Part shown: positions 36,262 through 64,000 of the stretch, in pieces
Numbering within the stretch: position 1 is the stretch's first letter
Layout of the letters: each line of letters starts with the position of its first letter
Assembly (NCBI GenBank): GCA_036831405.1
Contig: DAISMS010000002.1
Location: 26,202-90,201, forward strand
Direction of reading: 5' to 3'
DNA from: Clostridiales bacterium
GTDB lineage: Bacteria > Bacillota > Clostridia > Oscillospirales > Acutalibacteraceae
Length of the DNA: 64,000 nt
Notes under the pieces: model-generated
Seen by the model: only the letters and a program-made list of their open reading frames with translations
What the model was told of the DNA's origin: nothing
Databases searched by the model: none
Made by a program: the position numbers and the translations under genes

Positions 36262-36313
36262 GGTTTTATGTCTATTCGGGGGCATAAAACCCGGAAAGGA
36301 TATGGAGTTTAAA
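36262..36313 (+). promoter_or_regulatory. conserved hairpin leader element, copy 2
   Basis: GGTTTTATGTCTATTCGGGGGCATAAAACCCGGAAAGGATATGGAGTTTAAA lies directly before the ATG at 36314. Confidence 0.45.
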
Positions 36314-36517
36314 ATGAAAAAATCAGGTTTTGGATTTGGCGGTCATTCGAAAGGCAGGAGGTATCTGCCGGATAACGATTGGGAAGTAGCTGAAGAGATA
36401 TCCCCCGACCCGTTTTCAGAAGAGGAACATTCACAAATCCATGCGCGAAGGTTTGTACAGCCAAAATATAACAACAAGAAAATCAAAGAAAAAACGAACA
36501 ATCCGGAGCATACGTGA
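36314..36517 (+). CDS. small hypothetical protein (67 aa)
   Basis: ATG 36314 with GGAG 7 nt upstream; MKKSGFGFGGHSKGRRYLPDNDWEV... No recognised motif. Sits immediately upstream of the ctsR promoter. Confidence 0.5.
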   Translation: MKKSGFGFGGHSKGRRYLPDNDWEVAEEISPDPFSEEEHSQIHARRFVQPKYNNKKIKEKTNNPEHT

Positions 36518-61207: not shown

Positions 61208-61235
61208 TTGACTTTCAGAATAAATGGCATATAAT
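61208..61235 (+). promoter_or_regulatory. sigma-A promoter of the aspS leader
   Basis: TTGACT, then 16 nt, then TATAAT. Confidence 0.55.
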
Positions 61236-61261
61236 AGTGAATAATATCATAAAAACATTGA

Positions 61262-61510
61262 CGGGAAGAGTAGACTCGACAGGACGTTTCAGAGAGCCGG
61301 GGAAGGTGCAAGCCCGGTACCGATAGTCGGGAGGAAGAACATCCCTGAGTTTCCATCCGAAAGCCTTTTCAGGTCAGTAGGCGTGGACGTCGGGCGGCAC
61401 GTTACAGCCGTAAACCATAGGTGATGAGTGGATCGTTAAACGGTCTATTTGGGTGGTACCGCGGAAGCATCGTCTTTCGTCCCAGTTTCAGGGATGAAGG
61501 GCGTTTTTTA
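61262..61510 (+). ncRNA. T-box riboswitch leader, specifier read as AAC (Asn)
   Basis: Stem I: GGGA-AGAGUAG, AG bulge CAGAGAG, distal loop GGUGCAA. The 3' side of the specifier loop reads GGAAG-AAC-A directly before the closing UCCC and the UGA K-turn. T-box sequence TTTGGGTGGTACCGCG at 61448-61463. Terminator at 61471-61509 with G-U pairs plus TTTTTT. Confidence 0.85.
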
Positions 61511-61570
61511 TTGGTTGAAAATTGGCAAGAGCAGAGCCCTTGCCCTACAAGATGAAAGGACATGGATTAA

Positions 61571-63652
61571 ATGAAACGAACCGACTATTGCGGCGCATTG
61601 CGTGAAAAGGATGTAGGCCGCACCATTACGGCGATGGGCTGGGCACAGAATAAGCGTGATATGGGGGGCGTTATTTTTATTGACCTGCGGGATAGAGAGG
61701 GTACGCTGCAGGTGGTTTTTGATGCGCGCAATCTTTCAGCAGAGGATTTTACGGCGGCCGAGCTTCTTAAGGTGGAATCAACCATTGCCGTCACCGGACT
61801 GCTGCGCCCTCGTGACCAGGAAACCTATAATCCGAGACTGGCGACAGGCACAATCGAGCTTGCCGCTACAAAGCTGGAGGTACTCTCCGAGGCCGAAACC
61901 CTGCCGTTTCAGCTGGAGGATGCAGCCAATGTTCGGGAGGATCTGCGACTAAAATACCGCTTTATTGATCTCCGCCGCCCCAAGCTGCTGAATAATCTGC
62001 GGTTCAGAGCCGCTGTTGTCAAGACGGTCTGTGATTATCTCGACAACGATGGATTTATTCAGATAGAGACGCCCATGCTGACCAAAAGCCCGCCCGAGGG
62101 TGCGAGGGACTACCTTGTTCCCAGCCGGGTGCATCAGGGCAAGTTTTACGCCCTGCCCCAGTCACCACAGATATTTAAGCAGCTTTTGATGGTGGGGGGA
62201 ATCGATAAATATTATCAGGTTGCCCGCTGCTTTCGCGACGAGGATCTGCGCGCCGATCGCCAGCCTGAATTCACCCAGGTGGATATGGAGATGTCGTTTG
62301 TTGGTCAGGAGGAGATTCTTATCCGGCTTGAAAAGCTGTTCAAGCATATTTTCAGCCGGACGCTGGGATTTGAATTCACCCAAGCCTTTCCCCGACTGAC
62401 ATGGCGTGAGTGTATGGACAGATACGGCAGCGATAAGCCGGATCTTCGATTTGATCTTCCCATCATCGACCTGACCGAGCAGATGCGGGGCTGCGGATTC
62501 TCAGTGTTCCGCAATGCAGTAGACAAAGGCGGTTATGTCCGCGCCATCAATGTCAAGGGCAGCGGTGATTTTACCCGCGGCACCATTGAGGATCTCACCG
62601 CCAAGGCACAGGGCTACGGCGCAAAGGGCATGGCATGGATTGCCATGAAGGAGGACGGAACACCCTATTCCATCCTGACCAAGTATTTTACTGAAAATGA
62701 ATTCGACAGCCTGCTTGGGGCAGTGGACGCAAAAGCGGGGGATTTCATTCTGTTCTGCGCCGACAAATATTCCACCGTCTGCCGCACCCTCGGCGGACTG
62801 CGGCTTGACCTTGCCGATATGATTGGGCTCCGCCGCAAGGATGATTATAAATTCCTGATTGTCACCGATTTCCCGGAATTTGAATATTCCGAGGAGGAGG
62901 GGCGCTATCTCGCAACACACCATCCGTTTACCATGCCCTACCCCGAGGACATCCCCTATCTCCTATCCGATCCGGGACGGGTGCGCGCCCAGGCCTATGA
63001 CGTGGTTCTCAACGGTGTCGAGCTGGGCAGCGGTAGCATCCGTATCCATCGCCGGGATGTACAGCAAACCATGTTTGAGGCACTGGGATTTGACGACGAG
63101 CAAATTGAAGAGCGGTTTGGATTTATGGTAAACGCTTTCCGTTACGGAACGCCTCCCCATGGGGGATTTGCATTCGGTCTTGACCGTCTTGTCATGCTGA
63201 TGTTGGGAGAGGATTCGCTTCGTGAGGTTATCGCATTCCCCAAGGTCAAGGACGCCAGCTGCCTGATGACCGATGCACCCAATGTCGTGGATCAGGAACA
63301 GCTGGATGTGCTGGGATTGACAGCCGGTCTGCTTGAGCAAGAACCGGCGGCTGCCACTCAAAACAAGCAGGTGGAAAAAATAAATGTGGACAACGTCGCC
63401 GAGCTCACCAAGCTCCAAATGAGCCAGAAGGAAAAAAAGGAGCTTGAAGCCGAATTGGAGACAATGATTGACTTTGTAAGTCAGCTTAAGGAGCTGGATA
63501 CCACCGGCGTGCCGGTTACCGATCATGCAGTACCGCTGAAAAATGTGCTTCGTGAGGATGTCCCCCATCAGCTTTATGACAGAGATGAGCTGCTTGCAAG
63601 CGCACCCCAAAAACAGGACGGATATATATTCGTACCGCAGGTCGTGGAATAG
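61571..63652 (+). CDS. aspS: aspartyl-tRNA synthetase fused in frame to a C-terminal GatC domain
   Basis: Class IIb AspRS motifs are present (FYALPQSPQ, FRDEDLRADRQPEF, GSIRIH, GGFAFGLDR). The normal AspRS end (AFPKVKDASCLMTDAP) is followed by a linker and a roughly 90-aa GatC-like module (nt 63380-63649). Confidence 0.9.
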   Translation: MKRTDYCGALREKDVGRTITAMGWAQNKRDMGGVIFIDLRDREGTLQVVFDARNLSAEDFTAAELLKVESTIAVTGLLRPRDQETYNPRLATGTIELAATKLEVLSEAETLPFQLEDAANVREDLRLKYRFIDLRRPKLLNNLRFRAAVVKTVCDYLDNDGFIQIETPMLTKSPPEGARDYLVPSRVHQGKFYALPQSPQIFKQLLMVGGIDKYYQVARCFRDEDLRADRQPEFTQVDMEMSFVGQEEILIRLEKLFKHIFSRTLGFEFTQAFPRLTWRECMDRYGSDKPDLRFDLPIIDLTEQMRGCGFSVFRNAVDKGGYVRAINVKGSGDFTRGTIEDLTAKAQGYGAKGMAWIAMKEDGTPYSILTKYFTENEFDSLLGAVDAKAGDFILFCADKYSTVCRTLGGLRLDLADMIGLRRKDDYKFLIVTDFPEFEYSEEEGRYLATHHPFTMPYPEDIPYLLSDPGRVRAQAYDVVLNGVELGSGSIRIHRRDVQQTMFEALGFDDEQIEERFGFMVNAFRYGTPPHGGFAFGLDRLVMLMLGEDSLREVIAFPKVKDASCLMTDAPNVVDQEQLDVLGLTAGLLEQEPAAATQNKQVEKINVDNVAELTKLQMSQKEKKELEAELETMIDFVSQLKELDTTGVPVTDHAVPLKNVLREDVPHQLYDRDELLASAPQKQDGYIFVPQVVE

Positions 63653-63664
63653 GAGGAAGCCGGA

Positions 63665-64000
63665 ATGAAAGAGCAAATAACAAAAATGACGGTTAGCCGG
63701 TTGAGTGAAGGGCTGTCAAGCAAAGAGATTTCGGCTGTCGAGGCCGCAAAGGCGTATCTGGACAAAATAACCGCTTGTGATAAAGAGATTGGCGCCTATC
63801 TCCAAGTGACTGCCGAGCAAGCCTTAAAACAAGCCCAACAAGTCGATCAGCTACGTGCCGCAGGAGAGCGGCTTTCCCCCCTTGCCGGCATCCCAGCGGG
63901 AATCAAGGATAATATTTGCGCAAAGGGTATAAACACAACCTGTGCTTCCCGTATGCTGGAGAACTTTGTTCCGCCTTACAATGCCTTTGTAATGCAGCGG
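63665..64000 (+). CDS. gatA: Asp/Glu-tRNA amidotransferase subunit A, 3' partial
   Basis: AGGAGGaagccggaATG; ...EISAVEAAKAYLDKI....LAGIPAGIKDNI (amidase signature start). Open to the window end. Confidence 0.9.
   Translation, partial: MKEQITKMTVSRLSEGLSSKEISAVEAAKAYLDKITACDKEIGAYLQVTAEQALKQAQQVDQLRAAGERLSPLAGIPAGIKDNICAKGINTTCASRMLENFVPPYNAFVMQR

Follow-up and report, generated by a model that had tools for sequence, protein, structure and literature searches.

A T-box leader that very probably senses tRNA-Asn precedes an AspRS-GatC fusion operon in a Clostridiales bacterium

Results

The aspS::gatC Operon and Its Fused First Gene

The window, by which we mean the whole stretch of 64,000 nucleotides that was analysed, ends within an operon on the forward strand. 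Its first gene, aspS::gatC (61571-63652), encodes a fusion protein of 693 aa in which residues 1-584 are an aspartyl-tRNA synthetase (AspRS; TIGR00459, 740 bits) and residues 601-693 (nt 63371-63649) a C-terminal GatC (TIGR00135, 84 bits). It is followed on the same strand by gatA (487 aa; 63665-65128), of which the 5′ part (63665-64000) lies in the window and the rest on contig C2, and then by gatB, at 65125-66561 of contig C2 in window numbering. The lysine and the two serines of GatA align with those of S. aureus GatA (2DF4) in the motifs IKDN, GGSSGG, and TGGSVR; the catalytic triad is intact, and the protein looks active as judged from its residues. The order of AspRS and then GatC in one chain is that of the bifunctional aspartyl-tRNA synthetase/GatC family of NCBIfam (NF009460, PRK12820). 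The fusion protein scores 618 bits against a family cut-off of 1379, however, and is not an equivalog member; it therefore probably belongs to a lineage of fusions separate from that family.

The ribosome-binding stretch in front of aspS (61553-61573; GAAAGGACAUGGAUUAAAUG) is preceded by a small hairpin (61524-61544) and resembles the ribosome-binding site of a cassette elsewhere in the window (36294-36315; GAAAGGAUAUGGAGUUUAAAAUG). The hairpin and ribosome-binding site were considered together as a copy of the hairpin-plus-ribosome-binding-site cassette at 36262-36315. Only the ribosome-binding part (GAAAGGAYATGGA) is alike, and the candidate was rejected; no further copies of this cassette were found within the window.

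The Leader Carries the Elements of a Complete T-Box

Upstream of the operon, a sigma-70-type promoter on the forward strand (TTGACT-16 nt-TATAAT, 61208-61235) matches the consensus at 11 of 12 positions. The T-box model RF00230 then aligns to 61249-61487 of the same strand with 109 bits (E 3.6e-23; gathering score, 93 bits), and the match covers model positions 1-219, the full length of the model, through Stem I, Stem II/IIA-B, Stem III, and the antiterminator. The first-pass annotation of this DNA had credited the leader with the full set of T-box landmarks, and both the alignment and the individual motifs bear this out. The UGA/AGUA K-turn region lies at 61259-61272. In the RF00230 alignment, the closing helix of the specifier loop is formed by GGGA (61263-61266) and its partner UCCC (61342-61345). 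Farther along, AGAGA (61291-61295), which provides the AG bulge of Stem I, is followed by the distal loop GGUGCAA; both are motifs of the platform for the tRNA elbow. The 3′ side of the specifier loop (61334-61341) consists of an S-turn GAA (61334-61336), a spacer G61337, the triplet AAC (61338-61340), and the purine A61341.

The T-box sequence itself, GGGUGGUACCGCG, is found at 61451-61463. The antiterminator (61450-61484) is made of a UGGG/CCCA and a GCGGA/UUCGU helix, which flank a 7-nt bulge, UGGUACC (61454-61460). Within the bulge, UGGU (61454-61457) is the predicted partner of the tRNA 3′ end, G73-C-C-A, with U61457 as the variable base. The intrinsic terminator (61471-61509) comprises a 13-bp stem (61471-61503) and a run of six U residues (61504-61509). 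When folded alone, the antiterminator reaches −10.1 kcal/mol and its UGGUACC bulge stays open, and the terminator stem with its U-run reaches −20.4 kcal/mol (z −6.45). Bases 61476-61484 are common to the terminator and to the 3′ strand of the antiterminator, and the two folds are mutually exclusive. Minimum-free-energy folding did not recover Stem I, either in the whole leader (z −1.93) or in Stem I alone (z +0.25). Since Stem I is built on non-canonical K-turn and S-turn motifs, this is expected and is no evidence against a T-box.

The leader thus shares with other RF00230 T-boxes, such as those of B. subtilis tyrS and glyQS, the Stem I K-turn, AG bulge, distal loop, S-turn, and specifier followed by a purine, as well as the UGGN antiterminator bulge and the competing intrinsic terminator. 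It differs from those examples only in its specificity for Asn, in the genes it regulates, and in a discriminator-bulge pair that is predicted to be G-U.

The Specifier Triplet Is AAC

AAC at 61338-61340, followed by A61341 and the UCCC/GGGA helix, had been proposed as the specifier from the sequence alone, and the covariance-model alignment arrives at the same coordinates: the specifier columns hold AAC, neither GAC nor GAU. Both Asp codons are also absent from the specifier loop as a whole, the 3′ half of which reads GGAGGAAGAACA. One other codon overlaps the triplet. The loop reads GAAC, so that a shift by one base gives GAA at 61337-61339.

The specifier columns of RF00230 were calibrated on the other T-boxes of the genome, and 8 of 9 show a codon that fits the downstream gene. 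The leaders of tyrS, pheS, alaS, and thrS read UAC, UUC, GCC, and ACC, those of cysE and ilvB UGC and AUC, and those of a trpB-like gene and of an ABC substrate-binding protein gene both UGG; a further leader, on contig C73, has CUC in front of a gene that is cut by the contig end. Among these other T-boxes, UGGA is the bulge of the leaders for Cys and Thr, and the remainder have UGGU. The two Trp (UGG) T-boxes lie outside the window, at C4:54794-55052 and C5:43693-43942; one stands before the ABC-type substrate-binding protein gene and the other before the TrpB-like gene. The former gene is a candidate for part of a tryptophan-related transporter.

tRNA-Asn and Its Fit to the Antiterminator Bulge

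ARAGORN reported no tRNA-Asn in the 136-contig assembly. A pattern search found an otherwise intact-looking copy that is truncated where contig C91 ends, with the 3′ part ...GUUGGUUCGAGUCCAAC-UUGGGGA-G-CCA, and hence with A72 and the discriminator G73. Full-length tRNA-Asn genes from genomes of the same genus and the same family have U1, A72, and G73, and U1-A72 is the identity pair for GatCAB (PMC1635274). In the genome itself, tRNA-Asp has G1-C72 and G73, and tRNA-Glu and tRNA-Gln both have A73. A tRNA-Asn 3′ half (ACUGUUAACCGCAGGGUCGUUGGUUCGAGUCCAACAGGGGGAGCCA) was also seen behind unrelated sequence at C133:224-270, outside the window; this fragment has the appearance of an attachment site that was duplicated when an element inserted into a tRNA-Asn gene.

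Pairing of the tRNA-Asn discriminator with the UGGU bulge had been put forward as a check, and G73 can pair with the bulge, though only as a G-U wobble; UGGC, capable of Watson-Crick pairing, occurs in 16 of 55 relatives. In the present leader, then, the discriminator-bulge pair would be G-U and not Watson-Crick. That the G73-U61457 contact is only a wobble counts somewhat against the main reading. Of the 55 related leaders, 39 have a UGGU bulge and 16 a UGGC bulge, and A or G never occupies the variable base, as predicted for a ligand tRNA that carries G73. Because tRNA-Asp and tRNA-Asn both have G73, the bulge cannot separate Asn from Asp, and this distinction is left to the specifier.

Taken with the calibrated specifier, these features make it very likely that the leader works as a T-box riboswitch of the classical type, which attenuates transcription and is specific for tRNA-Asn(GUU); the mechanism is assigned from membership of the family.

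The Operon Is the Only Route to Asn-tRNA(Asn) in the Genome

In the assembly, which is 99.75% complete, no asparaginyl-tRNA synthetase (AsnRS) was found at the family cut-off: the best match to TIGR00457 reached 105 bits, where 342.6 are required, and the matches were LysRS and two AspRSs. The same model recovered a true AsnRS in 17 of 30 relatives. gatA, gatB, and gatC are each present once in the genome, all within the aspS::gatC operon. From the lack of AsnRS and this sole set of gatC, gatA, and gatB, it follows that, by gene content, the operon is the only route to Asn-tRNA(Asn) in the genome. GlnRS is encoded (712 bits), and GatCAB is therefore unneeded for Gln-tRNA(Gln).

The second AspRS, of 599 aa, is 51% identical to the fused one, and its gene immediately follows hisS on contig C24, a gene pair at which no T-box was found. 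Both the second aspS and the missing asnS had been envisaged in the first-pass annotation. The two synthetases differ in the L1 loop of the anticodon-binding domain, a position of which reportedly matters for AspRS discrimination. The loop of the C24 enzyme, QRDLGQLVF, resembles that of the discriminating E. coli enzyme, RRDLGSLIF. In the fusion protein, it reads KRDMGGVIF, which is similar to the RRDHGGVIF of the solved non-discriminating AspRSs (P. aeruginosa, mycobacteria) but lacks the His. We infer that the synthetase of the fusion does not discriminate and charges tRNA-Asn, as is required of it in a genome without AsnRS. The earlier proposal of an AspRS-amidotransferase pair dedicated to Asn fits the gene content.

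Two asparagine synthetases are encoded outside the window, both AsnB-type (C43:6518-8137 and C18:21070-22662), and no AsnA was found in the genome. Their presence in a genome that is unable to charge free Asn onto tRNA counts against the main reading; for the AsnB-type pair, a supply of free Asn or another amidation, for example in the cell wall, is possible.

The Asn Specifier Is Conserved among Related Fusion Operons

Thirty related genomes contain 12 further AspRS-GatC fusion genes (∼700 aa), every one of them with a T-box upstream (12/12; 84-124 bits). When these leaders were aligned with that of the window, AAC and the following A were invariant in all 13; of these, 11 have G in front of the triplet and 2 have A, and 12 carry a UGGU bulge, the remaining one UGGC. 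AsnRS is found as well in 6 of the 13 fusion-bearing genomes, and the operon is therefore not always the sole route but redundant there. Within the genus, AsnRS is a mosaic, present in 9 of 16 genomes (the present one counted among the 16) and absent from 7, without tracking the fusion operon, a pattern suggesting that the direct Asn-tRNA pathway was repeatedly gained or lost in the genus.

A scan of species-representative genomes yielded 80 full-length fusion loci (62%-85% protein identity), nearly all from uncultured Oscillospiraceae, Ruminococcaceae, or Clostridia MAGs of guts and digesters. A T-box core lies at most 500 nt upstream in 63 of the 80 and further upstream in 6 more; for about 9, no T-box was seen within 1.2 kb upstream. 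AAC is present in every leader inspected, at least 66 in all; these include 53 recovered with a pattern, 8 read by eye, and 3 aligned with the covariance model. In the 53 leaders, the preceding base is G in 41, U in 7, and A in 5, and the closing helix varies too; the base after AAC in related leaders is mostly A and sometimes G or C. At four of these 6 loci (L084, L086, L129, and L130), the distance from the Asn T-box (∼240-630) to the fusion gene downstream (start 1201) is 600-900 nt, which leaves space for another gene between the T-box and aspS::gatC.

Three shorter, unfused aspS genes from other genera (576-583 aa) are preceded by a compact, divergent T-box that scores 43-45 bits, well under the gathering score (L038, 402-582; L046, 232-417 on the reverse strand; L050, 477-613). 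One of their genomes (G016) belongs to the same family, and the other two (G020 and G027) to other families of the same order. These T-boxes contain GGGAAC(A/G)CUUC and UGGC and appear, from these motifs, to be a variant of the Asn leader with a reduced Stem I. Since the unfused genes carry this GGGAAC T-box, Asn control of a second aspS seems to be older than the AspRS-GatC fusion.

Discussion

Could the Leader Read Another tRNA?

The overlap of AAC with GAA raises the possibility of a two-codon T-box of the kind described for C. acetobutylicum (the NT-box), in which tRNA-Asn would be read at AAC or, after a shift by one base, tRNA-Glu at GAA (61337-61339), with U61457 pairing with both. For the leader of C. 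acetobutylicum, accounts of the published work report a dual response to Asn and Glu (PMC4052509, PMC4574755). GAAC is found in the present leader and in 41 of 53 related ones, and U is the only base that suits both ligands, as it forms a Watson-Crick pair with A73 of tRNA-Glu and a wobble with G73 of tRNA-Asn. Moreover, UGGU occurs in 33 of 41 leaders with G before AAC versus 4 of 12 others, an association for which Fisher's test gives p = 0.0035 when kinship is ignored. On the protein tree, however, there are 4 changes of the base before AAC and 5 of the bulge base, which amount to 3-4 independent contrasts, and the association of GAA with UGGU is therefore without phylogenetically valid support. 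In addition, the 12 of 53 leaders with U or A before AAC offer UAA or AAA in the shifted frame, neither of which is a Glu codon, and 16 leaders have UGGC, which is unable to pair with A73. The rationale published for sensing Glu is also weaker here, where GlnRS is present and GatCAB is unneeded for Gln-tRNA. A two-codon T-box thus appears improbable at this locus, and it is similarly doubtful that the leader and those of most Oscillospiraceae relatives are switches for two tRNAs, Asn and Glu, in which U was chosen to suit both and lineages without GAA drift to UGGC. If that were true, two-codon T-boxes would be a widespread and evolvable class that extends beyond the single case of C. acetobutylicum.

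That the T-box senses tRNA-Asp, as an ordinary aspS leader would, with AAC as an incidental triplet, is very hard to sustain. The first gene does encode an AspRS, and tRNA-Asp also has G73. Against this, neither GAC nor GAU occurs in GGAGGAAGAACA, the 3′ half of the loop around the specifier, and AAC occupies the calibrated columns and is invariant in the inspected leaders while the flanking bases vary. That the leader is a relic, decayed or always terminating, without a part in regulation, a reading to which the minimum-free-energy fold of the whole leader without Stem I (z −1.93) might point, is scarcely credible given the full-length match above the gathering score, the conserved motifs, all intact, the retention of leaders across dozens of species at 62%-85% protein identity, and an operon that the cell cannot do without when AsnRS is lacking, which excludes permanent termination.

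Proposed Mode of Regulation

For the preferred reading, a T-box specific for tRNA-Asn, the following mode of action is proposed by analogy with the family. Transcription would start ∼7 nt past the TATAAT at 61230-61235. Uncharged tRNA-Asn would dock on Stem I, with its GUU anticodon on AAC (61338-61340) and its elbow on the platform, and its free G73-C-C-A end would pair with UGGU (61454-61457). In T-boxes, the antiterminator is the weaker fold and prevails only with the help of the tRNA 3′ end; here, pairing of the 3′ end would stabilize the antiterminator (−10 kcal/mol) against the terminator (−20 kcal/mol). With the antiterminator held, RNA polymerase would read into aspS::gatC-gatA-gatB. 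Aminoacylated tRNA-Asn would be unable to contact the bulge, so that the terminator would form and transcription would stop at the U-run (61504-61509). Binding of the tRNA and antitermination at this leader are, in this sense, predictions from family membership.

On the enzymatic side, the fused AspRS would make Asp-tRNA(Asn), which GatCAB would amidate, and the hisS-aspS copy would serve tRNA-Asp. The operon and its leader would then form a self-contained indirect pathway dedicated to Asn, in which the charging level of the product feeds back to repress the machinery that makes it.

Relation to Known Systems and Implications

The first-pass annotation pointed to T-box control of an amidation operon in C. 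acetobutylicum, and correctly so: in the published descriptions, a T-box (NT-box) of that organism controls the operon for tRNA-dependent transamidation (Saad et al. 2012 J Biol Chem 287:20382; Saad et al. 2013 PNAS 110:12756; via PMC4574755, PMC4052509). When compared by published description only, the two systems have in common a T-box with an Asn codon and an overlapping GAA in front of aspS and gatCAB, induction of the operon by uncharged tRNA-Asn, which is reported there and predicted here, and a second, housekeeping AspRS elsewhere in the genome. They differ in that GatC is fused here to the C terminus of AspRS. They also differ in that the present genome has no AsnRS but has GlnRS, so that the operon is its sole route dedicated to Asn; C. 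acetobutylicum has redundant routes and is not known to have a GlnRS. As far as those descriptions go, the arrangement as such is already described in C. acetobutylicum, and the differences here are the fusion, the lack of AsnRS together with the presence of GlnRS, and the wide conservation in uncultured Oscillospiraceae.

No new mechanism is revealed. The leader nevertheless fixes the annotation of the operon, in which AspRS-GatC and GatAB would be a factory for Asn-tRNA(Asn) regulated by how far tRNA-Asn is charged, in a bacterium that, by its gene content, cannot charge tRNA-Asn directly. The related leaders, with G, U, or A before AAC and UGGU or UGGC in the bulge, provide a natural series of variants for the rules of T-box specificity. 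A regulatory logic that has been shown by experiment in one Clostridium would, on this reading, be conserved in many uncultured Oscillospiraceae of guts and digesters.
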